From positions 15,103-79,102 of the forward strand of contig JBGQLG010000004.1 in NCBI GenBank assembly GCA_041499965.1: 64,000 nt of DNA, read 5' to 3'. The notes beneath the pieces are model-generated. The model saw only the letters and a list, made by a program, of their open reading frames with translations, did no database searches and was not told the origin of the DNA. The position numbers and the translations under genes are program-made. The first letter of the stretch is position 1. Every line of letters begins with the position of its first letter. This document shows, one piece after another, positions 32,695 through 64,000 of the stretch. This stretch comes from Candidatus Methylomirabilia bacterium. Its GTDB lineage: Bacteria; Methylomirabilota; Methylomirabilia; Rokubacteriales; CSP1-6.

Positions 32695-32713
32695 CGGTAT
32701 ACTTCGAGCACCG

Positions 32714-34192: not shown

Positions 34193-34203
34193 GCGGAATC
34201 GCC

Positions 34204-35508: not shown

Positions 35509-35510
35509 GC

Positions 35511-48359: not shown

Positions 48360-48414
48360 GGCGCCATAGTATGATCGATCGCCCACGGGAAACACGGGAC
48401 TCAGGGGGTAGGTC

Positions 48415-49590
48415 ATGGAGAAGTTTCGGGGCGTCGACTACTACGGCATCGAGACGCTGCTCTCCGACGACGAGCGGATGATCCGCGACGCCGTCCGCGA
48501 CTGGGTCGAGGCGGAGTTCCTGCCGATCGTGGCGGAGCACCATCGAGCGGAGACGTTCCCGGTCGCGCTCATCCCCAAGCTCGGCGAGCTGGGCGTGTTC
48601 GGCGCCACGCTCCAGGGCTACGGCTGCGCCGGCCTGAACAACGTCGCCTATGGCCTGATCATGCAGGAGCTGGAGCGCGGCGACTCCGGGCTGCGTTCAG
48701 GCGCCTCCGTGCAGAGCGGGCTCGTGATGTACCCGATCTACACGTATGGCTCCGACGCCCAGAAGGACCGCTGGCTGCCCAAGCTGGCGACCGGCGAGGC
48801 GGTGGGCTGCTTCGGCCTCACCGAGCCCGATCACGGCTCCGACCCCGGCTCGATGAAGACGCGCGCGAAGCGCGTGGCCGACGGCTACGTGCTCAACGGC
48901 ACCAAGCTGTGGATCACCAACGGCTCCATCGCCGACGTCGCCGTGGTGTGGGCCAAGGAAGATGACGGCGAGATCTACGGCTACCTGGTCGAGCGCGGCA
49001 CCCCGGGCTTCTCGACGCTCGACATCCACGGCAAGTTCTCGATGCGCGCCTCGATCACCTCGGAGCTGGCCTTCCAGGACTGCAAGATCCCGCTCGACAA
49101 CAAGCTCCCCAAGGTGCAGGGGCTGCGCGGGCCGCTGGGCTGTCTGAACCAGGCGCGCTACGGCATCGCCTGGGGCGCGGTGGGTGCGGCGATGGCCTGC
49201 TACGACTGGACGCTGCAGTACGCCCAGCAGCGCATCCAGTTCGGCAGGCCGATCGCCTCGTTCCAGCTCGTGCAGCAGAAGCTCGTCTGGATGATCACCG
49301 AGATCACCAAGGCCCAGCTCCTCGTGCTGCAGCTCGGCCGCCTCAAGGACGCCGGCACGCTGCGGCCCCAGCAGGTCTCGATGGCCAAGATGAACAACGT
49401 GCAGATGGCGCTCGACACCGCCCGCCTGGGCCGCGACGTCCTGGGCGCGGCCGGCATCGTGGACGAGCACCCGATCATCCGCCACATGCTAAACCTCGAG
49501 ACGGTCAACACGTACGAGGGGACGCACGACATCCACACGCTGATCGTGGGCCGGGACATCACGGGACTGGACGCGTTCGGGATCGGCTAG
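48415..49590 (+). CDS. gcdH: acyl-CoA dehydrogenase, glutaryl-CoA dehydrogenase-like
   Basis: 391 aa. [36 protein letters not shown]-terminus typical of GCDH. Confidence 0.8.
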
Positions 49591-49611
49591 CGGTCGTGCC
49601 GCGGAAGCGGT

Positions 49612-50415
49612 CTAGGCGCGCGGCACCTCGCCGCTGCGGATGGCGATCTCGCGGACCACCTGGTTGATCCGGCTGACCGCCTCGCCGATGCGGTCGGCCG
49701 CCTCGCTGGTCGCGGTCGACCGCTCGCGCATCTGCAAGAGCTGGGCGCTGGCCAGGATGACCGCGAGCGGGTTGTTGATGCGATCGCCCAGGTACTCGCC
49801 CAGCTCCTTGAGCAGCGCCAGCTCGGCGCCCTGCACCGTCCGCTCCTGCGCCGCGGCCATCGTCTGCCGCTCGGAGTCCAGCCGGGCCACGACGTCGTCG
49901 AGCGCCTTGGCGCTGGCCGCGACCAGCTCGCGCAGATCCTCGGCGCCGCCGTGGGCCAGCGAGTCGAGGACCACCTGGTGGTAGCGCCGCGCGAACTCGA
50001 CGTCGCCGAGCAGCTGGCCCACCGTTTCCTCGTACTCGGCGCGCACGTGGCGGGCGACCAGCGTCTCGAGCTCGTGCGCCACCTGGTTGGGCGCGATCTC
50101 CTTGGCGTCGAGGTACGCGGTGGCGCCGAGGTCGCGGCCGAAGTCGTGGGAGGCGTCGCCGATGAAGATGCTGCTGTAGAAGATGAACGGCAGCTTCTTG
50201 AAGCGCGGGTCCTGGCGGATGGTCCGGCAGAGCTGGAAGCCGTCCATCTTGGGCATCTTCACGTCGGAGACGATGGCGTCGATCGGCTCGCGCTCCAGGA
50301 TCTCCAGCGCCAGGGTGCCGTCGCCCGCGGTCAGGACCTCGTGGCCGGCGCGGCCGAAGAGCGCCGTCAGCATGCGTCGGTGCGGCGACGAGTCGTCCAC
50401 CACGAGGATTCGCAT
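49612..50415 (-). CDS. response-regulator receiver fused to a HisKA-like dimerisation domain lacking the phosphoacceptor His and any ATPase domain
   Basis: MRILVVDDSSPHRRML...SDVKMPKMDG REC domain. C-terminal LGDRINNPLAVILASAQLL parallels the H-box IAHEINNPL with His replaced by Asp. No HATPase_c. Confidence 0.65.
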   Translation of the reverse strand: MRILVVDDSSPHRRMLTALFGRAGHEVLTAGDGTLALEILEREPIDAIVSDVKMPKMDGFQLCRTIRQDPRFKKLPFIFYSSIFIGDASHDFGRDLGATAYLDAKEIAPNQVAHELETLVARHVRAEYEETVGQLLGDVEFARRYHQVVLDSLAHGGAEDLRELVAASAKALDDVVARLDSERQTMAAAQERTVQGAELALLKELGEYLGDRINNPLAVILASAQLLQMRERSTATSEAADRIGEAVSRINQVVREIAIRSGEVPRA

Positions 50416-50471
50416 GGCCCGTCTATCATTACTCGACCGGGCCACCCGGCCGGCAGCCTAAAATGCGCCGC

Positions 50472-50503
50472 GCGGGTGGGGGCCACCGCCGGCCCCCCCC
50501 CCC
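50472..50503 (-). terminator. GC-rich hairpin (GGGGGCC-ACCGCC-GGCCCCC plus C/G run) downstream of the cyclase gene; terminator-like, same architecture as the repeat hairpins
   Basis: Perfect 7-bp stem. A U-rich stretch (AUUUUA) lies only about 14 nt further 3' on the minus-strand transcript, so not a canonical intrinsic terminator. Confidence 0.35.
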
Positions 50504-50504
50504 G

Positions 50505-51452
50505 TCACTTGATCGCGTACGGGTTGATCGGCGTCCCCACGCCGCGGGTGACCGGCAGCGGCGGCGCGACCAGCAGGAAGGCGTAGCGGCCGTCGGCGGC
50601 GCAGTCGGCGGCCAGATCTTCCAGGAAGAAGATCTCGCCCAGCGTGAGCCCCATGTTGGGGATGGCCAGCACGTGGAACGGGTTGCGGAAGCCGGCGATC
50701 TCCGAGGGGCGCACCTCGACCGCGTAGTTGTCGCTGGCGATGGCCGCGATCTCCTTGGCGTGCAGCCACGGCGCGGTGTGGGCGGAGACGCCGGGGAAAT
50801 CGTCCAGGTCGAAGTGCCGCCAGTCCTTCTTGTCCAGGTACCGGCTCATGTGGCCGGTGCGGACCAGCAGGATGTCGCCCCGCTTGATCTCGATCTTGGC
50901 CGCCGCCGCCGTCGCCTCGAGATCGGCGACGGTGATCGCGTAGCCGGGCTCGAGCGCCCGCACGCCCTTGTGGCGCGCCACGTCCAGCAGCACGCCGCGG
51001 CCGGCGATCTTGTTCGTCGTCTTGTCGATGCTGTTCTTGGCCGCGCCGCTGCTGGTCACCAGATTCGCGTCGTAGCCGTTCCACATCTTGCCCTCGTAGA
51101 AGATGTGGGCGAGGCTGTCCCACTGGGTCACCGACTGTAGCGGCATGACGATCCAGTCGTCGGAGCCGCCGTAGCCCTGCATCGCGCGCACCTCGTCCGG
51201 CGTCCGCGGCTGGTCGCCGCCGTCGCGGAACATGGCGTGGATGGGGTTGAAGCGCTGGCGGGTGCCGCTCTGCGGCCCGTCCCGCTGCAGCGGGATGCCG
51301 AGCGCGAAGACCTTGCCCGTCGTGGCCAGCCGGGCGGCGGCGGCGATCGCCTCCGGCGTGATGTAATTCAGGGTGCCGATCTCGTCGTCGGGCCCCCACT
51401 TGCCCCAGTTGCGCACTTGAAGCACGAGCTTTCGGAGGATGTCTTCACTCAT
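50505..51452 (-). CDS. cyclase-family protein (kynurenine formamidase-like metal-dependent hydrolase)
   Basis: 315 aa. Family call is pattern-based. Confidence 0.6.
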   Translation of the reverse strand: MSEDILRKLVLQVRNWGKWGPDDEIGTLNYITPEAIAAAARLATTGKVFALGIPLQRDGPQSGTRQRFNPIHAMFRDGGDQPRTPDEVRAMQGYGGSDDWIVMPLQSVTQWDSLAHIFYEGKMWNGYDANLVTSSGAAKNSIDKTTNKIAGRGVLLDVARHKGVRALEPGYAITVADLEATAAAAKIEIKRGDILLVRTGHMSRYLDKKDWRHFDLDDFPGVSAHTAPWLHAKEIAAIASDNYAVEVRPSEIAGFRNPFHVLAIPNMGLTLGEIFFLEDLAADCAADGRYAFLLVAPPLPVTRGVGTPINPYAIK

Positions 51453-51531
51453 GGCCCGCCATCATACGGTACTCTCGCGGTCAGGGAACGCCGGGGCCCC
51501 TCGGCGCGTTTGCAACAAATGGAGGACGCCC

Positions 51532-52047
51532 ATGACCATCCAGTGGCGGCGACAGGCCATCCTGACGGCGATCGTGATGCTCCTGCTCGGGCCCGGACTG
51601 ACCGACCGCGTTCTGGCCGACGGCGGCGGTGGCGACGACCGCGCCAACCAGCCGCGGGGCCGGGCGGAAGACCCCGACTACACAGCGGGGGTGAAGGCGA
51701 TCCGGGCCAACCGGTTCGCCGAGGCGATGCCGCTGCTGCAGCGCGTCGTCGACCGCGACGCCAAGAACGCCGACGCCTACAACTGGCTCGCCTACGCCAC
51801 CCGGCGCAACGGCGATGCCACCGCGGCGCTGCCGCTCTACGAGAAGGCGCTGGCGATCGACCCCAAGCACCGGGGCGCCCACGAGTACATCGGCGAGGCC
51901 TACCTGATCCTGGGCAACCTGCCCAAGGCCAAGGAGCACCTGGCCCGGCTCGACTCGCTGTGCACGCTGGGCTGCTCGCAGTACCGCGATCTGAAGAAGG
52001 CCGTCGAGGAGTACGAGAAGACCGGCAAGGTGTCGGCCACGCACTGA
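51532..52047 (+). CDS. secreted TPR-repeat protein
   Basis: Signal peptide (ILTAIVMLLLGPGLT). ADAYNWLAYATRRNGD...ALPLYEKALAIDPKH...AHEYIGEAYLILGN TPR-like repeats. GGAGG SD before ATG 51532. Confidence 0.6.
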   Translation: MTIQWRRQAILTAIVMLLLGPGLTDRVLADGGGGDDRANQPRGRAEDPDYTAGVKAIRANRFAEAMPLLQRVVDRDAKNADAYNWLAYATRRNGDATAALPLYEKALAIDPKHRGAHEYIGEAYLILGNLPKAKEHLARLDSLCTLGCSQYRDLKKAVEEYEKTGKVSATH

Positions 52048-52103
52048 CCCGCCGCTTGTCCTGAGGCCCCTCGTCCCGTACGCTCCCGGGTGCCGGCCGC
52101 CCG

Positions 52104-53351
52104 ATGCGTGGCCGGGACGAGGAGGCCCCGGTGAAGGTCGGCATCTTCTACGAGCTGCAGTTGCCCCGTCCGTGGGGCGAGCGGAGCGAGTACCAGCTTC
52201 TGCAAGACGCGCTCAGCCAGATCGAGCTGGCCGATCGGCTCGGCTTCGACTACGCCTGGTGCGTCGAGCACCACTTCCTCGAGGAGTACTCGCACTGCTC
52301 GGCGCCCGAGGTGTTCCTGGGCGCGGCCACCCAGCGCACCAAGCGCATCCGTCTCGGCCACGGGATCGTCCAGCTCCCGACCAATCATCCGATCCGTGTT
52401 GCCGAGCGGGTGTCCACGCTCGATCTGCTCTCGGGCGGCCGCGTCGAGCTGGGGCTCGGCGAGGGGCAGGGGCCCGTCGAGCTGCACCCGTTCGGGGCCC
52501 GCGTGCGCGACAAGCGCGAGGTGTGGGAGGAAGCCGTACAGGCGCTCGTCCCCGCGTTCACCCAGAGCGCCTGGCAGTGGGAGGGCCGGCACTTCAAGTT
52601 CCCTGCGCGCAACGTGCTGCCCAAGCCGTTCCAGAAGCCGCACCCGCCGCTGTGGGTCGCCTGCTCGAATATCCAGACGATCGCCAACGCCGGCCGCTGG
52701 GGCATGGGCGCGCTCGGCTTCCAGTTCGTCTCGCCCGACGCCGCCCGCGCGTGGGTGAACCGCTACTACCTGGAGCTGACGCAGAACCTGGCGCGGCTCG
52801 CCGACTACCCGGCGAACCCGAACATCGCCATGGTCAGCGGCTTCATGTGCGCGCCCACCGACGAGGAGGCGCTGGCCAAGGCCTCGGGCTGGACGTTCTT
52901 CGTCTTCTGCCTCAGCCACTACGGCCGCCACGGCATTCCCAACCCGGGCGAGGGGAACATGTGGGAGGCCTACCAGGAGTGGCGCCACACCGACCAGGCG
53001 CAGGAGACGCTGCGCAGCGGGCTCATCGGCTCGCCGGAGACGATCCGCCGCCGGCTGCGCGAGTTCGAGGTGACCGGCGTGGACCAGGTGATCTTGCTGG
53101 CCCAGGCCGGCCGCACCGCCCACGAGGACATCTGCAAGAGCCTCGAGCTGTTCGCGCGCGAGGTGATGCCGGAGTTCCACGCGCGCGAGCCCGAGCACGC
53201 GCGCTGGAAGGCCGACGTGCTGGCCGGCCGTGTGCACCTGCAGGGCGAGGACTCGGACACCTACCGGCTCTACGCCCACCAGAACGAGGACATCGTGCGG
53301 CTCACGCCGGCCGAGCTGAAGGCCAAGAGGGTGGCCAAGGAGCGCGCGTGA
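52104..53351 (+). CDS. LLM-class (luciferase-like) flavin/F420-dependent oxidoreductase
   Basis: TIM-barrel LLM pattern (VGIFYELQ...DYAWCVEHHF...LGLGEG...). Start may be GTG 52131. Confidence 0.7.
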   Translation: MRGRDEEAPVKVGIFYELQLPRPWGERSEYQLLQDALSQIELADRLGFDYAWCVEHHFLEEYSHCSAPEVFLGAATQRTKRIRLGHGIVQLPTNHPIRVAERVSTLDLLSGGRVELGLGEGQGPVELHPFGARVRDKREVWEEAVQALVPAFTQSAWQWEGRHFKFPARNVLPKPFQKPHPPLWVACSNIQTIANAGRWGMGALGFQFVSPDAARAWVNRYYLELTQNLARLADYPANPNIAMVSGFMCAPTDEEALAKASGWTFFVFCLSHYGRHGIPNPGEGNMWEAYQEWRHTDQAQETLRSGLIGSPETIRRRLREFEVTGVDQVILLAQAGRTAHEDICKSLELFAREVMPEFHAREPEHARWKADVLAGRVHLQGEDSDTYRLYAHQNEDIVRLTPAELKAKRVAKERA

Positions 53352-53683
53352 GCGCGCACGGGCTGCCGGCGCTCGCCTGGCTGGTGTTCGTGGGCGCGGC
53401 GTTGCTGGAGGTGGGCGGCGACGCCACCGTTCGCCACGGGCTCCGCGGGGGCCGCGCCGGCGTGATCATTGCCGGCTGCGTACTGCTGGCCGGCTACGGC
53501 CTGCTCGTGAACGTCGTGCGGTGGGACCTCTCGCGGCTGCTCGGCGCTTATGTCGCGGTATTTGCACTGGTCAGCGTGCTGGTCGGGCGCCTCGTGCTGC
53601 ACGAGAGCGTGCCGATCTCCACCTGGCTCGGGGTCGGCATCATCTGCGCCGGCGGCGCCGTCGTGCAGTTCGGCTCGCGCTGA
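53347..53683 (+). CDS. small 4-TM membrane protein, YnfA/UPF0060 (SMR-like) family
   Basis: About 111 aa, four hydrophobic helices. GTG start overlapping the LLM stop. Hidden inside the ORF-track frame 52172..53683. Confidence 0.5.
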
Positions 53684-54411
53684 TGCCCGCGCTGCTCGTG
53701 CACGGCGTCCCCGACACCGATCGCGTCTGGCATGCGGTCGTTCCGCGGCTGGGGCGGCCCGACGTGGTGACGCTGCGGCTGCCGGGCTTCGGCGGGCCGA
53801 CGCCCGACGGCTTCGATTCGACGAAGGACGCGTACGCCGCCTGGCTCGTCGAGCACATCGTGGCGCAGGACGGGCCGGTCGACCTGGTCGGCCACGACTG
53901 GGGCGCGCTGCTCGTGCTCCGCGCGGCGTGTCTGCGACCGGAGCTGGTGCGGAGCTGGGCGGTGGGGGCTGCGCCGCTCGACGCCGAGTACGTCTGGCAC
54001 AAGGCTGCCCAGGCCTGGCAGACGCCCGAGGTCGGCGAGCAGGTGATGGCGCGGCTCACGGGGCCGGCGATGGAGAAAGCGCTGGCCGCGGCGGGCGTGC
54101 CGTCCGAGGACGCGCGCGAGGCGGCGGCCCATCTCGACGACACGATGAAGCGCTGCATCCTGCGCCTCTACCGCTCGGCCATCACGGTCGGCGAGCAGTG
54201 GGGTCCCGACCTCAGCCGGCTGCCCGCGCCGGGGCTGATCCTGTGGGGCGAGCTGGATCCCTACGCGGCGCCGACGTGGGGGGAACGGCTCGCCGCCCGC
54301 ACGGGCGCGCGCTTCGTGTCGCTCGCGGGATGCTCGCACTGGTGGCAGCTCGAGCGCCCGGCCGACGTGGCGACGCTGCTCACGACGCACTGGGACGGCG
54401 CCGGGCGATGA
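53683..54411 (+). CDS. alpha/beta-fold hydrolase
   Basis: MPALLVHGVPDTDRVW...LVGHDWGALL nucleophile-elbow-like context. ATG overlaps the previous stop (TGATG). Confidence 0.65.
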   Translation: MPALLVHGVPDTDRVWHAVVPRLGRPDVVTLRLPGFGGPTPDGFDSTKDAYAAWLVEHIVAQDGPVDLVGHDWGALLVLRAACLRPELVRSWAVGAAPLDAEYVWHKAAQAWQTPEVGEQVMARLTGPAMEKALAAAGVPSEDAREAAAHLDDTMKRCILRLYRSAITVGEQWGPDLSRLPAPGLILWGELDPYAAPTWGERLAARTGARFVSLAGCSHWWQLERPADVATLLTTHWDGAGR

Positions 54412-56672
54412 TCGGGCAATCGCATCCCCGCCTGGGCGGCGGGCCGCTGGTGACCGGCACCGGCCGCTTCGTGGACGACGTGCGGGTGCCGGGGATGCTG
54501 CACGCCGCGGTGCTGCGCTCGCCCCACGCCCACGCGCGGCTCGTCTCCATCGACGCCAAGCGGGCGCGCGATCTGCCCGGCGTGCGCGCGGTGCTGACCG
54601 CGGCCGACGTGCCGGCCGCCGCCATCATTCCCAACCGCGTGCCGGCTCCGGCCGGCACCGATCGCTATCTGCAGCCGGCCATCGCCCGCACCGTGGTGCG
54701 CTACGTGGGCGAGCCGGTGGCGCTCGTCGTCGCCGACGATCCGTACCTGGCCCGCGACGCCGCCGAGCTGATCGACGCGGTGTACGAGACGCTGCCCGCC
54801 TGCCCGTCGGTGGCCGACGCGCTGGCGCCGGGCGCGCCGCGGCTGTTCGCCGGGACCGACTCGAACAACGTCGCCACCATCACCATGCGCGTGGGCGACG
54901 TCGACGCCGCGCTGGCCGGCGCCGCCGTCGTCATCCGCGAGCGGTATGACTATCCGCGCCAGACGGCCGCCGCGCTGGAGACGCGCGGGCTGGTGGCGGT
55001 GCCGCCGGCGGCCAGCGGCGGCGAGCTGCACCTGATCGGCTCGACGAAGTGCATTCACATCAACCGCACGATCCTGGCGCCGATCTTCGGCATGCCGCCC
55101 GGCGCGCTGCGGCTCACCGAGGTGGACGTCGGCGGCGGCTTCGGCGTGCGGGGAGAGCTGTACCCCGAGGACATCCTGGTGCCGCTGGCCGCGCTCAAGC
55201 TGGGCCGGCCGGTGAAGTGGATCGAGAGCCGGCGCGAGAACCTCATGGCCGCCAACCACGCCCGCGAGGTCGCCTACGAGATCGAGATCGGCTTCGCCGG
55301 CGACGGCCGCATCCTGGGCATCCGCGCGGTGATCCACGCGGACATCGGCGCCTACGTGCGCACGGCCGCGCTGGTGCCGGCGGAGTTCGGCGCGTCGCTG
55401 CTGCCCGGCCCGTATCGCGTGCCCAGCTACGCCTGCGACCTCTGGTCGGTGGTGACCAACAAGACGCCGGCGGGCACGCTGCGCTCGCCCGGTCGCCCGG
55501 AGTGCAACTTCGTGCGCGAGCGACTGCTGGACCGGGGCGCCGCGCGCCTCGGCCTCGACCCGGCCGAGCTGCGCCGGCGCAACCTGATCCGCCCTGAGGA
55601 GATGCCCTACGACTGCGGCACGAAGTCGTTCGGCGTCAACACGGTGTACGACTCCGGCGATTTCCCCGCGCTGTTCGCCGAGCTGCTGCGCCGGCTCGAC
55701 TACGACGGGGCGCGCGCCGAGCAGGCGACGCTGAACGCCCGGCCCGGACTGCGGCGCGGCATCGGCCTGGCCGTGTACGTCGAGAAGACCGGGCTCGGCC
55801 CCTTCGAGACCACGCAGGTGGAGGCGCGCGCCGACGGCACGCTGGTGGTGGACACCGGCGCCTCGTCGATGGGCCCGGGGCTGGAGACGGTGCTCGCGCA
55901 GATCCTCGGCGAATCGCTCGGCCTTCCGCCCGCGCGCTTCCACGTGCGCCACGCCGACACCGCCGCCGTGGAGAGCGGCGTGGGCACCTACGGCTCGCGC
56001 GGCACGGTCACCGCGGGCAACGCGGCCGCATTGGCCGCGGCCAAGCTCATCGCCGAGGCGCGCTCGCGGGCCGCCGCCCGTCTGGGCGTGGCCGAGGCCG
56101 AGGTGACGTACGCGGGCGGCGTGCTCGAGGCCGGCGGCCGTCGCGTCACGCTGGCCGAGCTGGCCGCCGAGCGCCGCCTGGCCGCCGGCGCCTCGTTCGA
56201 GGTGCCCAAGGTGACGTACGCCGGCTGCGCCTGCGCCGTCGTGCTCGACGTCGACGCCGAGACGGGCACGCTCGCGCTGCGCCGCATCGTCGTGGGCGCC
56301 GACGTCGGGCGCGCGGTGAACCCGGCGCTGGTCGACGCCCAGCTCGTGGGCGGTGTGGCCTTCGGCATCGGCAACACGCTGCACGAGAGCCTGGCCTACG
56401 ACGCCGACGGCCAGCTCGTCTCCGGCACGCTCATGGACTACGCGCTGCCGCTGGCCACCGACGTCCCCGTCGTGGACGGCTTTTACCAGGAGGTGCGCGC
56501 CAAGACCAACCCGCTCGGCCTGCGCGGCCTCGGCGAGTGCGGCAACCCGGGTCTCGGCGGCGCCATCGCCAACGCTGTGTGCGACGCGCTCGGCCGGCCC
56601 GAGCTGGCCATCACCGCGCTGCCGCTCACGCCCGCCCGGATCCGCGCGGCGATCGAGCGGGCGGCGCCATGA
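54408..56672 (+). CDS. molybdopterin-dependent hydroxylase large subunit (xanthine dehydrogenase/CoxL family); no adjacent small (2Fe-2S) or medium (FAD) subunit genes
   Basis: 754 aa. GRFVDDVRVPGMLHAAVLRSPHAHARLVSID N-terminus. Later GGGFGVRGE and EAR...PLGLRGLGECG motifs. ATGA overlaps with both flanking genes. Confidence 0.8.
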   Translation: MIGQSHPRLGGGPLVTGTGRFVDDVRVPGMLHAAVLRSPHAHARLVSIDAKRARDLPGVRAVLTAADVPAAAIIPNRVPAPAGTDRYLQPAIARTVVRYVGEPVALVVADDPYLARDAAELIDAVYETLPACPSVADALAPGAPRLFAGTDSNNVATITMRVGDVDAALAGAAVVIRERYDYPRQTAAALETRGLVAVPPAASGGELHLIGSTKCIHINRTILAPIFGMPPGALRLTEVDVGGGFGVRGELYPEDILVPLAALKLGRPVKWIESRRENLMAANHAREVAYEIEIGFAGDGRILGIRAVIHADIGAYVRTAALVPAEFGASLLPGPYRVPSYACDLWSVVTNKTPAGTLRSPGRPECNFVRERLLDRGAARLGLDPAELRRRNLIRPEEMPYDCGTKSFGVNTVYDSGDFPALFAELLRRLDYDGARAEQATLNARPGLRRGIGLAVYVEKTGLGPFETTQVEARADGTLVVDTGASSMGPGLETVLAQILGESLGLPPARFHVRHADTAAVESGVGTYGSRGTVTAGNAAALAAAKLIAEARSRAAARLGVAEAEVTYAGGVLEAGGRRVTLAELAAERRLAAGASFEVPKVTYAGCACAVVLDVDAETGTLALRRIVVGADVGRAVNPALVDAQLVGGVAFGIGNTLHESLAYDADGQLVSGTLMDYALPLATDVPVVDGFYQEVRAKTNPLGLRGLGECGNPGLGGAIANAVCDALGRPELAITALPLTPARIRAAIERAAP

Positions 56673-57640
56673 TCCGCGCCGCCGATCGTCTCGAGATCGT
56701 CGTCCTCGTCGACAACACCACCGACAGCCTGTCCACCACGCCGAAGCACGTCATTCCCGAGTGGGCCGGGCTGTACGCGGCGGGACGCCTGCCGACGCTA
56801 TCCGGCGAGGTCACCTGCCGGGCGCACCACGGCCTGTCGCTGCTGCTCACGGCGTACGTCGGCGAGGAGCGCCACACGCTGCTCTTCGACGCCGGCCCGG
56901 CCGGCTCCACGCTGACCCAGAACGCGACGATCCTGGGGGTGGACTGGAGCGAGATCGAGGCGGTTGTGCTGTCGCACGGCCACTGGGACCATGGCGGCGG
57001 CCTGCTCACCGCGATCGAGACGATCGCCCGGCACCGCAGCCCCGGCCAGCTCGACTGCTTCGTGCATCCCGGCATGTTCCGGCAGCGCGGCTCCCGGCGG
57101 CCGGACGGCATCCTGCTCGTGCAGGAGCGACTGCCGGATACGGAGGGGCTCGGCCGGGCCGGCGCCACCGTGGTCAGCACCCGCGAGGCGCAGACCGCCG
57201 TCGGCGGCGTCTTCTACGTGAGCGGCGAGATCCCGCGGGTGACGCCGTACGAGGTCGGGCTGCCCGGCCACGTCCAGCGCGCCGCCGACGGCTCGTGGGA
57301 GGACGATCCGCTCATCATGGACGAGCGCTTCGTCTCCGTGCACCTCAAGGGCCGGGGCCAGTTCGTCTTCTCCGCCTGCTCGCACGCCGGCGTCGTCAAC
57401 GTGCTGACCCACGCGCGCGAGGTCTTTCCCTCGCTGCCGCTCTACGGGGTGATGGGCGGGTTGCACCTGTCCGGCGTGACGGAGAAGATTATCCCGGACA
57501 CGGTCGCCGGGCTGAAGCGCTTCGGCCTGAGCGTGCTGGCGCCCGGGCACTGCACCGGCTGGCGGGCGATGAGTCTCCTGGCCCGCGAGTTCGGCGACGA
57601 GCTGGTGCCCTCGGCGGTGGGTAAACGTTATCTGGTTTGA
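56669..57640 (+). CDS. MBL-fold metallo-hydrolase
   Basis: VLSHGHWDHGGG (HxHxDH). Later His/Asp ligand spacing consistent with the beta-lactamase fold. Confidence 0.75.
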   Translation: MIRAADRLEIVVLVDNTTDSLSTTPKHVIPEWAGLYAAGRLPTLSGEVTCRAHHGLSLLLTAYVGEERHTLLFDAGPAGSTLTQNATILGVDWSEIEAVVLSHGHWDHGGGLLTAIETIARHRSPGQLDCFVHPGMFRQRGSRRPDGILLVQERLPDTEGLGRAGATVVSTREAQTAVGGVFYVSGEIPRVTPYEVGLPGHVQRAADGSWEDDPLIMDERFVSVHLKGRGQFVFSACSHAGVVNVLTHAREVFPSLPLYGVMGGLHLSGVTEKIIPDTVAGLKRFGLSVLAPGHCTGWRAMSLLAREFGDELVPSAVGKRYLV

Positions 57641-57947
57641 CGGGGGGGCCCCGAAGGGTCACGGAGCAGGTCGAACCCGCTCACCGTGCCGTTTCGGGGC
57701 TCCGTCTCCTCGAAGTGGGTTCCCGCGGGCGGCGCTGCTGCCGCCGCCCAGAAGCGAACTTCTCTTCATCGGCCGGTCTGGGCGTCGGGAATCCGCGAGA
57801 GCGCGTGAGCATCTGTCTTCCCGAGCGCGTGAAGTGACGGTACGACTCACGACAATCGCGGGGATAGGCTGGCCGGCCGACAAGCGCCTTCCCGAGGCGC
57901 TTCCCCATGATCCCCTGTCGGGAGCCGTTCAACGGGAGAACGACACG

Positions 57948-58304
57948 ATGAAGGCAGCAACCATTGCAGCGGGTGTGTTCCTCCTCGCGATCGCGACGCC
58001 GGCGCGTGCGGAACTGACGACGCAGGGATGGCTCGACTTCTACGATGGAAAGGCCGGACCGTCCGTCGTGGTGGCACAACTGATGGCAGAGTCCTATGTG
58101 CTCGGCATGGCGGCCAGCGTGATCGCGCTGCGAATCCTCTCGTGCCGAGATGGTTACCTCCCGAAGGCCGAAGACATCGCGAGGCTCACTGCGCGTGTGC
58201 TTCGGGACAACCTCTCGCACCCGGGCATGTCCGTTACCGCGGCGGTACTCGCTGCGGCAACCATTGACGGGACCTGCCAACGCGGCGAGCGAGGCGCGCG
58301 ATGA
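57948..58304 (+). CDS. small secreted hypothetical protein (118 aa), lower GC than surroundings
   Basis: MKAATIAAGVFLLAIATPARA signal peptide. GGAGAA SD. Local GC about 62% against about 70%. The ORF-track start at 57834 is an extension. Confidence 0.5.
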   Translation: MKAATIAAGVFLLAIATPARAELTTQGWLDFYDGKAGPSVVVAQLMAESYVLGMAASVIALRILSCRDGYLPKAEDIARLTARVLRDNLSHPGMSVTAAVLAAATIDGTCQRGERGAR

Positions 58305-58616
58305 TCGCCGCCCGACGAGGGCGACCGGTCCGGGGACGTGGCGGGCAGAAAACTCCGTGCCGGGCACTCAAGCCAGCCCACCTAGCGATGTTCGACGCTG
58401 GGCACGTTGAACTTTCCACTCCCGCCAGCGATCGGCTGGGCCGCCCACGCCGCACCCTGCGACTCCGCTCGTTTCGGTGGCCGTAGACCGTGCTGCCGGC
58501 GACGTAGCCCGCCTCGTGAAGCCTCCCTCCGGGCGCCCACCAGGGCGGTTGGCCCGGCCGCGCCGCCGGAGTACCATAAGCCCCTCGCGGGTTTCCGGTC
58601 CGCCAGGAGGGACGAG

Positions 58617-59672
58617 ATGGGCGAGATCCTTGGCCTCGGCATGACGCACTATCCGCCGCTCATCGGCACGGACGCGAACATGGCCAACATCCTGCGCGCC
58701 GTGCTCAAGGACCCAGGCCTCCCCGAGCGCTATCGCGATCCCGCGAGCTGGCCGGAGGCCATGCGCCGGGAGTACGGCAGCGACGGCGGCGCGGCCTCGG
58801 CGGCCGCCCACCGCGCCGACCTCGTGCGCCACTTCCGCCACGCCCGCAAGCTCCTGGACGAGTTCAAGCCGGACCTCGTCGTCATGTGGGGCGACGATCA
58901 GCACGAGAACTTCACCGAGGACGTCATCCCGCCGTTCTGCGTGCTGGCCTACGAGCAGGTCGAGGCGCGGCACCGGCCGCGCGACATCTCGGCGCCGAAC
59001 GTGTGGGGCGAGGGGCCGGACAAGGTCTTTCGGATCAACGGCCACCGCGAGGCAGGCAAGTACCTGGCGAGGCGGCTGCTGGAGCAGGGCGTGGACACGG
59101 CCTACGCCTACAAGCCGCTGCACCACGAGGGGCTGGCCCACGCGTTCCTCAACACGGTGCTCTACCTCGACTACGACCGCGTCGGCTTCCCGTACCCGGT
59201 CGTCGCCTTCCAGGTGAACTGCTACGGTCGCCGGGTCATCGCCCAGCGCGGCGGGCGCGGCAGCCTGGCCAATCCGCTGGCCGAGGCCGACCTCGATCCG
59301 CCGTCGCCCTCGCCGAAACGCTGCATGGAAGTCGGCGCGGCGGTCGCGCGGGCCATGCGCGAGAGCCCGTGGCGGGTGGCGCTCATCGCCTCGTCGAGCT
59401 GGTCGCACGCGTTCCTGACCGACAAGAACCACCAGCTCTATCCCGACATCCCCGAGGACCGGCGGCTCTACGAGGCGCTACGCGTCGGCGACTACGACAC
59501 CTGGCGCGACCGCCCGCTCTCAGCCATCGAGGAGTCCGGCCAGCAGGAGATGCTCAACTGGTACATGCTGGCCGGCGCCATGGAGGCGATCGGGCGCAAG
59601 CCGGACGAGTGCGAGTTCCTCGAGACGTGGTCGTTCAACTCCAACAAGTGTTTCGCGGTGTTCAAGCCATGA
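58617..59672 (+). CDS. LigB-type (class III) extradiol ring-cleavage dioxygenase
   Basis: GLGMTHYPPLIG, VVMWGDDQHENFTEDVIPPF and SSSWSHAFL parallel LigB TSSHIPALG, ILVYNDHASAF...IPTFAI and TGGMSHQL. AGGAGG SD 9 nt upstream of ATG 58617. Confidence 0.55.
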   Translation: MGEILGLGMTHYPPLIGTDANMANILRAVLKDPGLPERYRDPASWPEAMRREYGSDGGAASAAAHRADLVRHFRHARKLLDEFKPDLVVMWGDDQHENFTEDVIPPFCVLAYEQVEARHRPRDISAPNVWGEGPDKVFRINGHREAGKYLARRLLEQGVDTAYAYKPLHHEGLAHAFLNTVLYLDYDRVGFPYPVVAFQVNCYGRRVIAQRGGRGSLANPLAEADLDPPSPSPKRCMEVGAAVARAMRESPWRVALIASSSWSHAFLTDKNHQLYPDIPEDRRLYEALRVGDYDTWRDRPLSAIEESGQQEMLNWYMLAGAMEAIGRKPDECEFLETWSFNSNKCFAVFKP

Positions 59673-60940
59673 CGACGGCCCGGACCAACGGCAACGGCAC
59701 GGCGGCCATTCCCAAGCTGAGCGGCGACATCCGTACGCTCATCCCCACGCTCGGCCTGCACAACTACTGGTACCCGGCCATCGCCGACAAGAAAGTCGGC
59801 TCGCGCAAGCCGGTGAAGGTCGCCATGCTGGGCGAGGAGATCTGCCTCTTCCGCGGCGCCACCGGCGCGGTCGCGGCCATCCAGGACGTGTGCCCGCACC
59901 GCGGCGCCCGGCTGAGCGAGGGCAATTGCCACTACGAGGGCACCGTGGCCTGCCCGTACCACGGCTGGGTGTTCGACGAGTCCGGCAAGAACGTGGCCGT
60001 GCTCTCCGAGGGGCCGGACTCCGGCGTGTGCGGCAAGCCGGGCACCGAGGCGAAGATCTATCCCACCCGCACGCTCAAGGGCGTGGTCTTCGTCTGGGTC
60101 GGTAACGAGGATCCGGCGCCCATCGAGCAGGACGTGCCCGAGGAGTTCTTCGACGACGACGCGCTGGTGCAGATCGGCCAGGTCCACTGGCGCTGCAACT
60201 GGGAGGTGGCGCTCGAGAACTCGATGGACTCGCACGTGAACTACGTGCACCGCAACGCGGTGGTGGTGGCGCGCGGCGGCTTCATCGCCCGCGGCGCCCA
60301 GGGCGAGCACCCGCTCTACGTGGGCAACGGCTTCGGCGGCGACGTCGCCGAGAGCAACTACATGCGCCGCAACCCGACGCAGGACTTCTACCCCAACGGC
60401 TGGAAGTGGCCGAAGACCAACTACCGGCGGGTCTGGACGTGGATCACCAAGCCGCTGGCCGATCGCGCCCGGCGCAACATCCCGCCGCCGAAGTCGGCGC
60501 GGTGGTGCGGCGGCCACCATCTGCCCGGCATGTTCCGCGCGGAGTTCGGCTGGGATCTCTACACGCGCATGTGCGTGCCGGTCGAGGAGCACCTCACACG
60601 CGTCTGGTACTACCACTGCACGCGACCGAAGAACGCGGTCCGGCGGTTCTGGGACAGGCTGATGTACGCGACCGTGCGCCGCTGGATCATCGAGTACAAC
60701 TTCTCCCGTCAGGACGAGGCGGTGATGCTCAACCAGCGCTACGACACGCCGGAGAAGCTCTCCGGCACCGACGCCGAGGTGATCCAGTGGCGCAAGCTGG
60801 TGGTCACCAAGCACTACGGCGGCCGTGACGCGCCGTTCGAGTACCGCAACCCGGACGACCTCGCGCCCGACGCCGTGCCGGTCGAGCGCGTCTCCGTGCG
60901 CTATCTCCAGGAGAAGGCGCGGACCACGACGGCCCGATGA
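59669..60940 (+). CDS. Rieske non-heme iron oxygenase alpha subunit (KshA/CntA-like; no beta subunit or reductase adjacent)
   Basis: CPHRG...CPYHGW Rieske cluster motif. D-x2-H-x4-H (DSHVNYVH) mononuclear iron site. ATGA overlap with the LigB gene. Confidence 0.75.
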   Translation: MTTARTNGNGTAAIPKLSGDIRTLIPTLGLHNYWYPAIADKKVGSRKPVKVAMLGEEICLFRGATGAVAAIQDVCPHRGARLSEGNCHYEGTVACPYHGWVFDESGKNVAVLSEGPDSGVCGKPGTEAKIYPTRTLKGVVFVWVGNEDPAPIEQDVPEEFFDDDALVQIGQVHWRCNWEVALENSMDSHVNYVHRNAVVVARGGFIARGAQGEHPLYVGNGFGGDVAESNYMRRNPTQDFYPNGWKWPKTNYRRVWTWITKPLADRARRNIPPPKSARWCGGHHLPGMFRAEFGWDLYTRMCVPVEEHLTRVWYYHCTRPKNAVRRFWDRLMYATVRRWIIEYNFSRQDEAVMLNQRYDTPEKLSGTDAEVIQWRKLVVTKHYGGRDAPFEYRNPDDLAPDAVPVERVSVRYLQEKARTTTAR

Positions 60941-62040
60941 CGTCGATCACCCGGCGGGGCCTGCTGCGGACGGCGCTGGTCGGCGCCGCCGCCGCGGTGG
61001 CGGGCGTGCGGAGGGTCGCCGCCGCCGAAACGCCGCCGGAGTGGGCAGCCCTCGTGGCGGCGGCGAAGAAGGAAGGCCGGGTCGCCGTCAACACGTTCCC
61101 CGGCGACGGCTATGCCCGGGCGCTCAAGCCGTTCGCGCAGGCGTATCCCGACATCAAGATCGAGCATACGAGCCTGCACTCGCAGGACTTCGCGCCCCGC
61201 ATTCTCCAGGAGCGCAAGGCCAGCAGCTTCACCTGGGACGTGGTCTCGATCCCCACCAGCACCGCGCTGCAGGTGCTGCGGCCGGCCGGCGTCTGGGATC
61301 CGGTGCGGCCGGCGATCGTCCTGCCGGAGGCGAAGGACGACGGCGGGTGGGAGGGCGGCTTCGAGCGCGGGTTCTCGATCGTCAAGGACGGCGCGCTGAG
61401 CTACGGCTTCATCGCCATCCGGGGCGGTGGCGTGACGATCAACACCGACCTCGTGAAGGAAGACCAGCTCAAGACCTTCAACGACCTGCTCGACCCGCGC
61501 TGGAAGGGCAAGCTGCTCCTGCCCGACGTGCGGGTGATGGGCGACACCTTCTGGCCGATGACGGCCGTGCGCCTGGCCCTGGGCGACGACGTCATCAAGC
61601 GACTGTTCGTGGACCAGGAGCCGGCGCTGAGCCGGGACACCCGCCAGGTCGCGGAGTTCATGGTGCGCGGGCGATTCCCCATCGCGCTCGGCGTCAACCC
61701 GCTCCTGCTCAAGCAGTTCCAGCGCCAGGGCCTCGGCAAGAATCTCAGGCTGCTGCGCTTCCCCGAGATGGACACGGTGAACTTCGGCACCACGCTGTGG
61801 CTGGTCAACCGCGCGCCGCATCCCAACGCGGCGAAGCTGTTCATCAACTGGGTGCTGACCAAGGACGCGCAGGTGGCGTGGGCGCGCGAGGTGGAGACGA
61901 ACAGCCGCCGGGTCGGCGTCGAGCCGGGCAATCCGGAGTTCGCGCTGCCGCGCGGTGCGAAGTTCTTCCAGGTGGACGCCGAGGAGAACCTGGCCCACGT
62001 GGTCAAGACGCAGGATATCGCCAAGGCCGTGATCAAGTAG
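60937..62040 (+). CDS. ABC transporter periplasmic substrate-binding protein (family 1, Fe3+/polyamine type), Tat signal
   Basis: RRGLLRTALVGAAAAVAG twin-arginine signal. 367 aa. Confidence 0.7.
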   Translation: MTSITRRGLLRTALVGAAAAVAGVRRVAAAETPPEWAALVAAAKKEGRVAVNTFPGDGYARALKPFAQAYPDIKIEHTSLHSQDFAPRILQERKASSFTWDVVSIPTSTALQVLRPAGVWDPVRPAIVLPEAKDDGGWEGGFERGFSIVKDGALSYGFIAIRGGGVTINTDLVKEDQLKTFNDLLDPRWKGKLLLPDVRVMGDTFWPMTAVRLALGDDVIKRLFVDQEPALSRDTRQVAEFMVRGRFPIALGVNPLLLKQFQRQGLGKNLRLLRFPEMDTVNFGTTLWLVNRAPHPNAAKLFINWVLTKDAQVAWAREVETNSRRVGVEPGNPEFALPRGAKFFQVDAEENLAHVVKTQDIAKAVIK

Positions 62041-62072
62041 GCCGGGCGGCGGCGCGGGCCCGGGGGCGCTGA

Positions 62073-63185
62073 GTGGTGACGGGCGAGACGGTCCTGCAGC
62101 TCACCGGTGTGCGCAAGCTGTACGGCGCCGCCCCCGCCGTCGACGGCGCCTCGCTCCAGATCCAGCGCGGCGAGGTGTTCACGCTGCTGGGACCGAGCGG
62201 CTGCGGCAAGACGACGACGCTGCGCCTCGTTGCTGGCCTCGAGCGGCCTGACGCCGGCGACATCACGCTGCGCGGCCGCGTCGTCGCCTCGGCCGCGCGG
62301 CGGTTGTTCATCGCGCCGCACAAGCGGAACCTCGGCATGGTGTTCCAGTCTTACGCGATCTGGCCCCACATGAGCGTCTTCGAGAACGTCGCCTACCCGC
62401 TGCGGCTGCGCGGCACCAGGGCCGCGGACGTTGTCGAGCGGGTCACGCGCGTGCTCGACCTCGTCGGCCTGAGTGGGCTGCAGGAGCGCTCGGCCACCCT
62501 GCTCAGCGGCGGCCAGATGCAGCGCCTGGCGCTCTGCCCGAGCCTCGTCTACGAGCCGGACCTCCTGCTGCTGGACGAGCCGTTCAGCAACCTCGACGCC
62601 AAGCTCCGCGAGCAGATGCGCGTGGAGCTGAAGCTGCTGCAGCGCCGCCTCGGCGTGACCGTCCTCTTCGTCACCCACGATCAGATCGAGGCGCTCAGCC
62701 TCTCCGACCGCATCGCCGTCATGCAGCGCGGGCGGGTCGAGCAGGTCGGGACCCCGCGCGAGCTGTACGATCGCCCCGCGACCGCCTTCGTGCGCGATTT
62801 CCTGGGGCAGACCGTGGTCCTGCCCGGGCGCGTCGCCGGTGGTGGGCCGGGGGCGGTGACGGTGAAGCTCGACGGCGTGTTCGGCGGGCGCCTCATCACC
62901 GGTCGCGCCGCGCCGGGCGCGACGCTCGCCGCCGCCGCCGAGGCGCACGTGGCCATCAGGCCGGAAGACATCGAGGTGACGACCGACGGCACGGCGCCGG
63001 ATGACCACGCGCTCCCCGGCGTCATCGAGGCGCTGCTGTTCGTCGGCGACCGCTACGAGGCGCGCGTGTCACTCGGCGGCGAGCAGCGGATCCTGCTGCT
63101 CTTGCCGCGGGCGCGTGAGTGGCGTGAGGGCCAGCGCCTGCAACTCGGATTGCCACCGGGCGCGGTGGGAGTGTGGCCCGCGTGA
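62073..63185 (+). CDS. ABC transporter ATP-binding protein (PotA/FbpC-like with C-terminal TOBE domain)
   Basis: GPSGCGKTT Walker A, LSGGQMQRLAL signature, LLLDEP Walker B, HD H-loop. Confidence 0.85.
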   Translation: MVTGETVLQLTGVRKLYGAAPAVDGASLQIQRGEVFTLLGPSGCGKTTTLRLVAGLERPDAGDITLRGRVVASAARRLFIAPHKRNLGMVFQSYAIWPHMSVFENVAYPLRLRGTRAADVVERVTRVLDLVGLSGLQERSATLLSGGQMQRLALCPSLVYEPDLLLLDEPFSNLDAKLREQMRVELKLLQRRLGVTVLFVTHDQIEALSLSDRIAVMQRGRVEQVGTPRELYDRPATAFVRDFLGQTVVLPGRVAGGGPGAVTVKLDGVFGGRLITGRAAPGATLAAAAEAHVAIRPEDIEVTTDGTAPDDHALPGVIEALLFVGDRYEARVSLGGEQRILLLLPRAREWREGQRLQLGLPPGAVGVWPA

Positions 63186-63231
63186 GGACGACGGTGTGGT
63201 GAACATTGCTGGAGTCGCGTGAGGTGAGCAG

Positions 63232-64000
63232 ATGCCGGACACGAGCCGCGATCGCTCGATAAGCGTGCGGGAGGAGTTCGACCGCTGGAAGGTCGACTAC
63301 GCGGCCCATCGCCCGCGACTCAAGCCGTGGCTTGACGCGACGAAGTCGGCGGCCGTGAGCGCCGCCGTGTCGAGCGCCGTGCTCTTCGTCGTCTTTCTCG
63401 TCTTCTTTCTCCAACGGCAGCTGAGGGGGGCGAGGACGCCGGGCGCAAGGCCTTTGGAAGACCTGGTTCGGTCAGCCTTGCGCGAGACGCAGCAGGATCT
63501 CGGGAGCACGCTCGAGCTCAGCCGCCCGGGCGGTCGCCCCGAGGCCGGAGCCGAAACCCTGCCCCTCCCCGTCAGCCTGCCGACGGCAGAGCCCAAGGCC
63601 AGAGAGACAGAGCCGTTCCTGCGCCACCTGGAGGAGCACGTCCAGGCTCGACTCGACGAGCTGAACCAGACGAAGCGAACGGGACAGGCTCAGGAGCGGT
63701 TCGTGTTTGTCGTGCTGATGGTCGCGGGGCTGTTGACGCTGGGGCTGTCCCTCGGCGGAATCGCCTGCGTCGTTGTGGGGCGGCTAACCCCCGGCGTCCT
63801 CGCCGAGTGTGTCGCCATCCTGCCCGGCGGCGGAACGCTCATCCTCTGGCAAAAGTCGCGGACGCTCCGGGAACAGCGCGGGAGCATCGCGCGCGAGCTC
63901 GACTCGCATGTCCGCACGCTCCAGGCCATTCAACTCGTACGGGGCGTCCCCGACCCGGCCAAGCGCAGTCAGGGCATGATCGACCTCGCCCAGAAGCTCC
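63232..64000 (+). CDS. hypothetical membrane protein (5' part; runs off window end)
   Basis: ATG 63232 preceded by GAGGTGA. Open to the window end. Two predicted TM helices (AVSSAVLFVVFLVFFL; FVFVVLMVAGLLTLGLSLGGIACVVVG). Not in the ORF track because there is no stop. Confidence 0.35.
   Translation, partial: MPDTSRDRSISVREEFDRWKVDYAAHRPRLKPWLDATKSAAVSAAVSSAVLFVVFLVFFLQRQLRGARTPGARPLEDLVRSALRETQQDLGSTLELSRPGGRPEAGAETLPLPVSLPTAEPKARETEPFLRHLEEHVQARLDELNQTKRTGQAQERFVFVVLMVAGLLTLGLSLGGIACVVVGRLTPGVLAECVAILPGGGTLILWQKSRTLREQRGSIARELDSHVRTLQAIQLVRGVPDPAKRSQGMIDLAQKL

Follow-up and report, generated by a model that had tools for sequence, protein, structure and literature searches.

The described systems closest to the genes reported here are the car operon (CarAa, CarBaBb, CarC), the quinoline system of Pseudomonas putida 86 (Qor, OxoO/OxoR) and the hydroxylase KdhLMS of nicotine catabolism. 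Rieske oxygenases of the CarAa/OxoO class are alpha3 enzymes without a beta subunit, and the molybdenum (Mo) enzymes Qor and Kdh are LMS heterotrimers whose subunits are encoded together. We analysed 64,000 nucleotides of contig JBGQLG010000004.1 (positions 15,103 to 79,102, forward strand; hereafter the window) from a Candidatus Methylomirabilia bacterium, in which an island at 52104-63185 encodes, among other proteins, the large subunit of a Mo hydroxylase, a LigB-like protein, a Rieske oxygenase and components of an ATP-binding cassette (ABC) importer. A prior reading of the sequence, the original prediction, had likened the island to pathways for N-heterocyclic or phenolic compounds. The explanation that we favour, with moderate confidence, is an intact composite catabolic cluster of Rokubacteria, built from separable modules and likely serving the breakdown of aromatic compounds.

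The modular structure emerged from a scan of one genome per species, which yielded 73 loci, and from tblastn of these with all island proteins. The Rieske gene lies directly 3' of the gene for the LigB-like protein in 43 of the 50 loci that have a LigB-like protein of at least 70% identity and enough downstream sequence. Where at least 7.5 kb of downstream sequence was available (28 loci), the Rieske gene was present in 25, a short-chain dehydrogenase/reductase (SDR) gene in 23, the ABC genes in 15 and a CoxL gene of the window type in seven, and the commonest order was LigB, Rieske, solute-binding protein (SBP), ATPase, permease, SDR. This LigB-Rieske(-ABC)-SDR arrangement is widely conserved without the genes for the Mo enzyme and its companions, and dozens of genomes have no Mo enzyme within 10 kb of it. 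A luciferase-like flavin oxidoreductase (LLM), the CoxL-type subunit and a metallo-beta-lactamase-fold (MBL) protein are encoded upstream of LigB only where LigB identity is at least 85%, at ten distinct loci; distant LLMs occur within 10 kb in ten loci. The ten genes of the island are not one fixed unit; they fall into separable modules. Homologues came overwhelmingly from metagenome-assembled genomes (MAGs) of Candidatus Rokubacteria/Methylomirabilota. A LigB-Rieske pair sharing 79-82% identity with that of Rokubacteria was seen at eight loci (L019, L029, L031, L035, L037, L042, L047 and L048) whose MAGs bear the labels Dormibacterota, Limnocylindria, Verrucomicrobiia, Acidoferrum, Actinobacteria or Binatia; these are either mis-binned contigs in soil MAG catalogues or cases of recent operon transfer.

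The island itself is well preserved. Open reading frame (ORF) listing, start-site inspection and codon-position G+C gave ten plus-strand genes at the coordinates originally predicted, and Pfam and NCBIfam backed all the domain assignments, a small ORF at 57948-58304 being unassigned. The window has a G+C content of ~70%, and G+C at third codon positions (GC3) is 0.92-0.96 in every island gene except this small ORF (GC3 0.73, G+C 65%). The ten-gene region is intact, with host-like codons apart from the small ORF. Five junctions are 4-nt overlaps (GTGA or ATGA) as had been described, but the YnfA/hydrolase junction, assigned the same overlap, shares a single nucleotide (TGATG). Exact-protein look-ups led to two public contigs that carry this DNA, a JGI soil metagenome contig (99.9% identity over 48387-59923) and the NCBI MAG contig JBGPDR010000184 (L001), which blastn matched to 59939-64000 at 99.66% identity with 14 mismatches. 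Rfam at gathering thresholds and ARAGORN gave no match over the window, and a sigma-70 scan of 51400-64000 found no promoter, with terminators at chance-level number only.

We first consider the conserved core. The Rieske oxygenase alpha subunit (59669..60940, plus strand) starts by an ATGA overlap with the LigB-like gene and matches the Pfam families Rieske (73.5 bits), Aromatic_hydrox (48.6 bits) and VanA_C (23.1 bits). Its best PDB match was carbazole 1,9a-dioxygenase CarAa (3gcf, E 5e-35, residues 22-201), followed by phthalate-family enzymes, OxoO (E 5e-19) and DdmC. Both predicted motifs, CPHRG...CPYHGW and DSHVNYVH, are present, and the Rieske cluster ligands C75/H77/C95/H98, the bridging Asp D187 and the iron-binding H189 and H194 (these three in DSHVNYVH) are, like D349, invariant in 44 orthologues. 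D349 is a candidate for the third iron ligand; it lies beyond the CarAa alignment, which ends at residue 201. These similarities assign the protein to the homotrimeric CarAa/OxoO class. A Ring_hydroxyl_B domain was not found among the called window genes searched, and no gene for a beta subunit is expected because the nearest relatives are alpha3 enzymes. The missing beta subunit had been noted correctly, but what was called unusual is normal for this class. The absence of a reductase was borne out: neither the called genes of the 64-kb window nor the 7 kb that follow it include one for a ferredoxin or reductase. The sterol demethylase SdmA, the top NCBIfam match, was rejected as an identity for the protein (72 bits against a cutoff of 600, over the Rieske domain only).

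The LigB-like protein (351 aa; 58617..59672, plus strand) was harder to place by sequence. Pfam PF02900 (LigB) gave 41.2 bits against a cutoff of 26.3 and covers only the C-terminal third (residues 229-324), and similarity to solved structures was marginal (MhpB, E 2e-4 over 35 residues). An AF2 model based on a 38-sequence alignment had a pLDDT of 88.7 and a pTM of 0.91. All 31 top PDB matches of this model in Foldseek have the LigB fold and nearly all are class III extradiol dioxygenases, the best being LigAB beta (E 8e-16), followed by DesB, DHPAO, MhpB and AmnB, with E values ranging to 1e-11 and identities of 13-18%. By its modelled fold, the product of 58617-59672 is a member of the LigB superfamily.

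The predicted active site departs from this superfamily at one position. Q95 occupies the place of the second Fe ligand (LigB His61; MhpB 8k04 His53) in three independent alignments, made with HMMER against LigB (1b4u_B), with HMMER against MhpB and with hhalign against the canonical LigB of locus L059 (92% probability, where the residue is the His of NDH). H175, H264 (SSSWSH) and E311 correspond to LigB His127, His195 (GGMSH) and Glu242, and H264 and E311 are conserved across representatives; H11 (GLGMTHYPP), invariant in 38 members, corresponds to His12 by motif position only, the N-terminus lying outside the HMMER and hhalign alignments. Gln95 is likewise invariant in the 38-sequence alignment (A1). 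A profile search returned 278 cluster representatives at E <=1e-30. Among 45 near-full-length representatives (50% clusters), 26 have H11/Q95, five combine H95 with E or D at position 11, and the canonical His/His pair does not occur; the two positions co-vary in the family. D94 and E97 (DDQ[YH]E) are nearly invariant and specific to it. As aligned, the LigB-like protein fails one defining feature of the active site, the second Fe-ligand His. Of the 'LigB dioxygenase' originally predicted, the LigB fold stands, but the second Fe ligand is an invariant Gln, and ring cleavage by this protein is a putative function suggested by genomic context rather than by a catalytic signature.

That context is informative beyond the Rokubacteria. 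LigB-like homologues of 53-60% identity from other phyla belong to classical aromatic clusters whose Rieske enzymes are of different types: a Ramlibacter cluster encodes Ring_hydroxyl_A and B, SDR, MFS, MarR, the LigB-like protein, Amidohydro_2 and an FAA hydrolase; a deltaproteobacterial MAG (L058) encodes the LigB-like protein, SDR, Ring_hydroxyl A and B and Amidohydro_2; and Pseudonocardia benzenivorans encodes the LigB-like protein, an alpha/beta hydrolase and a LigXa-type Rieske enzyme. This recurrent ring-hydroxylating company is the best evidence that the LigB-like protein would be the ring opener in a hydroxylate-dehydrogenate-cleave series. An alphaproteobacterial MAG (L059, 4779-14426) has a 55%-identical LigB-like gene beside genes for a frameshifted CoxL-like protein, a GltD-like Fe-S flavoprotein and a large catalase, with the canonical LigB gene on the opposite strand in the same neighbourhood.

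The importer genes follow the core on the plus strand. They encode an SBP (60937..62040; Pfam SBP_bac_8/1/11/6) with a TRRGLL twin-arginine motif and an ATPase with a C-terminal TOBE domain (62073..63185; Pfam ABC_tran and TOBE_2), behind which the window holds the 5' part of a 267-aa membrane ORF (63232..64000; defined by translation and by gene calls at L001 3294-4097). The original prediction had remarked on the lack of a permease; on the 99.66%-identical contig L001, the gene next after the 267-aa ORF encodes a fused BPD_transp_1 permease of 573 aa, placing it two genes beyond the end of the window, and the permease appeared to be missing because the window ends before it. The island is longer than had been described. 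The 267-aa ORF has no NCBIfam match and separates ATPase and permease in this genome only, the permease gene being directly 3' of the ATPase gene in all other loci. Beyond the permease, L001 carries two minus-strand genes (SCO4226-like and DUF885) and genes for an SDR, an HIBADH-like dehydrogenase and an alpha/beta hydrolase.

All three transport components resemble the PhnS2/T2/U2 models at scores below the curated NCBIfam cutoffs, the SBP weakly matching PhnS2, the ATPase scoring best with PhnT2 (326 bits, cutoff 457) and the permease with PhnU2 (161 bits). The nearest solved SBPs are FbpA-like (E 3e-9), and these matches place the SBP in the Fe3+/aminoethylphosphonate/polyamine-type cluster. 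The class of the transporter is a hint that its ligand may be polar or charged. FbpA binds iron through a Tyr-Tyr pair, which the SBP sequence does not have. Iron(III) uptake was rejected as the role of the importer on account of the weak FbpA likeness and the absence of this pair.

Upstream of the core, the Mo large subunit of CoxL type (54408..56672, plus strand; Pfam Ald_Xan_dh_C, MoCoBD_1 and MoCoBD_2) had KdhL of nicotine catabolism as its best PDB match (7dqx, E 3e-145), followed by Mycobacterium CoxL, CutL and QorL (QorL E 1e-108). Among proteins of solved structure, N-heterocycle hydroxylases and CO dehydrogenases thus come closest to it. E710 (GLGECG), the GGGFG motif and Q185 are conserved, and E710 is invariant even in paralogues of 36-41% identity. 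The subunit is full length and codon-adapted and is therefore not a pseudogene, a concern raised earlier, and the catalytic Glu, GGGFG and Gln are retained. Active-site loops of CO dehydrogenases read VAYRCSFR (form I) and AYRGAGR (form II). CO dehydrogenase was rejected as the identity of the subunit, whose loop is GAYVRTA and which scored 532 bits (cutoff 950) and 441 bits (cutoff 991) with the NCBIfam CODH models.

Neither the 64-kb window nor the 7 kb beyond it yielded an S or M gene for the Mo subunit. A regular expression for the CoxS signature, which detects canonical CoxS only, found nothing in the six frames of the window, and Pfam found no FeS, FAD, ferredoxin or reductase domain of a partner protein among the called window genes. 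Beside orthologues of the subunit, the CoxS motif was absent from all four metagenome and all eight genome loci (flanks of 8-10 kb; CoxM was not searched there). The subunit is an orphan as originally described, with no partner gene nearby, but this is hardly unusual, since 27 of 40 CoxL-like loci from soil are without CoxS and only 13 have the motif within 3 kb; the 40 are those with at least 1.5 kb of flank on both sides among 80 metagenome loci (L083-L162) from a CoxL-alignment scan. In this sample from soil, Mo large subunits without partner genes seem to be the usual case, and FeS and FAD partners for the window subunit may be supplied in trans. A CoxL of 85% identity stands as a lone gene in other contexts among the metagenome loci.

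A paralogous module of LLM (421 aa), alpha/beta hydrolase (260 aa) and CoxL-like subunit (768 aa) occurs in soil contigs, at L117 5815-10244, L156 913-5485 and L029 2003-6535. It has the gene order of the window, an overlapping hydrolase/CoxL junction and no CoxS, at 27% (LLM) and 39% (CoxL) identity to the window proteins, and in L029 it divergently adjoins LigB-Rieske-SDR. In L022, L029 and L059, no more than ~1.2 kb separates a LigB-like gene from another CoxL paralogue; this adjacency is suggestive only, LLM and CoxL paralogues being frequent in these genomes.

The other genes of the Mo module, all on the plus strand, differ in how constant they are. The LLM gene (52131..53351; Pfam Bac_luciferase, 190 bits) starts at GTG 52131, which has GAGGAGG upstream, or alternatively at ATG 52104. 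Its product is nearest to FMN-type luciferase-like monooxygenases (best PDB match 7bip, E 4e-30), and orthologues of 88-90% identity lie upstream of CoxL in nine loci (L004, L011, L013-L015, L018, L083, L002 and L003), two of which, L002 (a 99.9%-identical copy) and L003, carry the window's own DNA. The YnfA/UPF0060 small membrane protein (53348..53683; Pfam UPF0060, 27.2 bits, cutoff 24.9) is encoded only in the window and its copy L002 and at no other locus carrying the Mo module, and is an insertion specific to this genome. The 242-aa alpha/beta-fold hydrolase (53683..54411; Pfam Abhydrolase_6, 85 bits) is an optional member, with orthologues of 72-74% identity in L011, L013 and L014 and none in L004, L015, L018 and L083, where LLM abuts CoxL. 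The MBL-fold gene (56669..57640; Pfam Lactamase_B, 36.8 bits) overlaps CoxL by ATGA and lies 3' of it at every locus with the module; its product, whose closest PDB entries are 7dck, 2p4z and 3h3e (E 1e-17 to 1e-21), is assigned by these similarities to that uncharacterised, COG1237-like group. A minus-strand gene of the PF04199 'cyclase' family (50505-51452), which we take to be the family of kynurenine formamidase and isatin hydrolase, is kept at 93-96% identity immediately 5' of LLM in L004, L011, L013 and L014, and may belong to the same catabolic neighbourhood.

Between the MBL and LigB genes the spacing varies. Six of the ten loci with the Mo module have gaps of 39-81 nt, which suggests a single transcription unit there, and a functional link of the module with LigB-Rieske in this lineage is plausible. 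In the window the spacer measures 976 nt (57641-58616), is specific to this genome and contains the small plus-strand ORF at 57948..58304, which has no Pfam or NCBIfam match. Apart from the window, only the identical contig L002 has this ORF; a PRC-domain gene takes its place in L004, and the six compact loci have no spacer. The lower G+C and signal-peptide-like N-terminus behind its description as a secreted-protein gene were seen again, but the ORF is not conserved and is doubtful as a functional gene; it is probably an insertion or a non-functional gene, and the spacer looks like a recent insertion into a once-compact array. When the DNA upstream of LigB from 16 loci was aligned, the distant loci showed TTGACA-N17/18-TAGCAT and the near ones TTGGCC...TAGGAT. 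The window version, TTGGCC-N17-TACCAT (58549..58577, plus strand), lies ~40 nt 5' of the LigB start, which is preceded by an AGGAGG Shine-Dalgarno sequence (58604-58609, plus strand), and scores below the threshold of the consensus scan. The alignment suggests that LigB has its own promoter-like element, conserved across lineages.

From these observations, which establish the gene content, its intactness and conservation and the modular synteny, we infer the order of the reactions, the link between the Mo module and the core and the class of substrate as follows. The core would consist of the LigB-fold protein and the CarAa/OxoO-type Rieske enzyme, usually followed by the SDR, which here lies just past the window. 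The Rieske enzyme would hydroxylate or dihydroxylate an aromatic ring with a ferredoxin and reductase encoded elsewhere, the SDR would re-aromatise the diol, and the LigB-fold enzyme would open the ring, leaving the product to the downstream hydrolase and the HIBADH-like enzyme. The PhnS2T2U2/FbpABC-like importer probably brings in the substrate. LLM, the Mo subunit and the MBL protein would form an accessory oxidation add-on, docked upstream only in this sublineage and probably co-transcribed with LigB in several relatives, that could hydroxylate a related, possibly N-heterocyclic compound with FeS and FAD partners from elsewhere in the genome. An oxidative catabolic cluster, as originally predicted, is supported. 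An N-heterocyclic substrate fits the Kdh/Qor, CarAa/OxoO and MhpB relatives but is a guess that the data do not require; that the substrate cannot be deduced from the sequence was also said at the time, and we agree.

Several findings weigh against this explanation. The data allow no substrate to be named, and what proteins of the SBP's class usually bind is a small polar or charged compound, not an aromatic one. The SDR is of a generic kind whose score does not make it a cis-diol dehydrogenase equivalog, and the LigB-like clade is without the canonical second Fe-ligand His, so that dioxygenase activity is not assured. Neither a Rieske ferredoxin or reductase nor the FeS and FAD subunits of CoxL are encoded in the 64 kb and the following 7 kb. 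Most LigB-Rieske loci are without the Mo module, and the 85%-identical CoxL is found alone elsewhere. CoxL-like and LLM paralogues also appear abundant, so some of the adjacency could be chance.

A possible but doubtful alternative is that the ten genes together make up a pathway dedicated to one N-heterocyclic or phenolic substrate, in which the first hydroxylation, beside the ring nitrogen, would fall to the Mo enzyme and the second to the Rieske enzyme, with LigB cleaving the ring and the hydrolases finishing the sequence. This would follow the quinoline logic of Qor and OxoO, and the nearest solved relatives of the three enzymes, KdhL/QorL, CarAa/OxoO and MhpB/LigB, are those that it calls for; the two blocks are contiguous in six related loci (gap 39-81 nt), and in L022, L029 and L059 different CoxL paralogues are found ~1.2 kb or less from a LigB-like gene. 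The distribution of the genes argues the other way, with the LigB-Rieske-SDR core present in dozens of genomes that have no Mo enzyme within 10 kb and the 85%-identical CoxL occurring as a lone gene. In the window itself the blocks stand 976 nt apart, separated by a non-conserved ORF and a conserved promoter-like element, and the type of transporter does not suggest heteroaromatics.

Conversely, the two blocks could be unrelated neighbours, LLM-CoxL-MBL acting on some other compound and the adjacency being a lineage-specific rearrangement. We consider this unlikely. Its appeal is that the adjacency is confined to the lineage with LigB identity of at least 85%, that orthologues of the Mo module are found alone, and that many loci often have CoxL-like and LLM paralogues close by (in ten, distant LLMs no more than 10 kb away). 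It accounts poorly for the co-directional junctions of 39-81 nt in six loci, which suggest co-transcription, and for L029, where a paralogous LLM-hydrolase-CoxL set was recruited independently, and divergently, beside LigB.

It is improbable, in our estimate, that the two enzyme clades are new functional variants, one with a LigB fold and a non-canonical metal site, the other comprising Mo subunits never encoded with FeS and FAD subunits. On this proposal, a metal site of His/Gln/Glu, or of Glu or Asp/His/Glu in sister branches, could confer a different metal or ring chemistry on the LigB clade, and the Mo-subunit clade that recurs in LLM-(hydrolase)-CoxL(-MBL) modules might pass electrons to non-classical partners. 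Neither the CoxL clade nor the LigB-like clade had a characterised member in our searches, and literature searches on aromatic catabolism in Rokubacteria, orphan coxL, Gln ligands in LigB and PDB 7DCK returned nothing usable. Very unlikely, finally, is that the LigB-fold protein is not an extradiol dioxygenase and that, with a polar and possibly non-aromatic compound taken up by the PhnSTU-like importer as substrate, it instead performs other chemistry or assists the Rieske enzyme without being catalytic itself: Q95 in place of LigB His61, the absence of His/His from all 45 representatives, the non-catalytic LigB-fold subunits such as AmnA among the structural matches and the aminoethylphosphonate-type models matched best by the transporter parts would fit, but H264 (the catalytic base), H175, E311 and H11 are conserved and homologues lie within classical ring-hydroxylating dioxygenase clusters with downstream hydrolases.

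Genes relevant to the Mo cofactor lie elsewhere in the window. A minus-strand gene at 40813-42063 encodes rhodanese and ThiF/MoeB domains and has an in-frame TGA (41110-41112) at the position of the catalytic Cys (PS*SEAGVLG). With GC3 of 0.93 on both sides of the TGA and a stable hairpin from ~15 nt downstream, its product is probably a selenocysteine-containing MoeB, and the earlier call looks right. A family of selenocysteine-containing MoeB-type proteins is already known (PMC1088965). The stretch 32684-37378 holds a glycolate-oxidase-like GlcD/GlcE/GlcF set, with FAD_binding_4/FAD-oxidase_C and then an Fe-S CCG-type ORF that ends at 36857, and after it a MoaB/MogA-like ORF (~36854-37378); GlcE, GlcF and MoaB were read from translations only. 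The moaB call at 36854 seems right, but this gene has no link with the island.

If the composite-cluster explanation is true, abundant uncultured soil Rokubacteria carry a widely conserved LigB-like/Rieske/ABC importer/SDR operon under strong constraint, with protein identities of 76-91% over dozens of species-level genomes. Such an operon would take up and cleave an aromatic compound of soil organic matter, providing a handle on the diet of these bacteria. The His-to-Gln LigB clade and the partner-less Mo subunits, as far as sequence inference alone can suggest, may be of interest to enzymologists.

Set against the described systems, the island is most like the car operon in combining a homotrimeric-class Rieske oxygenase with a LigB-superfamily enzyme and an alpha/beta hydrolase nearby. 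It differs in that the CarAa similarity reaches no further than the Rieske domain and the first part of the catalytic one, in the absence from the window of a CarBa-like small subunit and of a CarAc/CarAd ferredoxin or reductase, and in its gene order, with LigB first, the LigB-like protein being 13-18% identical to solved class III enzymes and having the Gln ligand. With the quinoline and KdhLMS systems it shares a CoxL/Qor/Kdh-clade Mo hydroxylase in the same cluster as an OxoO/CarAa-class Rieske enzyme; unlike Qor and Kdh, its Mo subunit has no S or M gene nearby, and a Mo module of this type is dispensable for the LigB-Rieske core. LigAB, DesB, MhpB, AmnAB and DHPAO have the same fold, with conserved equivalents of His12, His127, His195 and Glu242, whereas the window protein has the invariant Gln for His61 and ~50 extra residues. 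CoxLMS shares the large-subunit architecture, with strong NCBIfam and PDB similarity, and is set apart by the GAYVRTA loop, the scores far below the CODH equivalog cutoffs and the absence of CoxM and CoxS genes. The importer has the three-component architecture, fused double permease and TOBE ATPase of PhnS2T2U2/FbpABC, from which it departs in its sub-cutoff scores, an SBP lacking the FbpA Tyr-Tyr pair and the unrelated 267-aa ORF inserted among its genes. A Rieske oxygenase, a dehydrogenase, an extradiol-type cleavage enzyme, an importer and a Mo hydroxylase make up a type of system that is already well known, and the island is a typical uncharacterised catabolic island of this type rather than a new kind of system.

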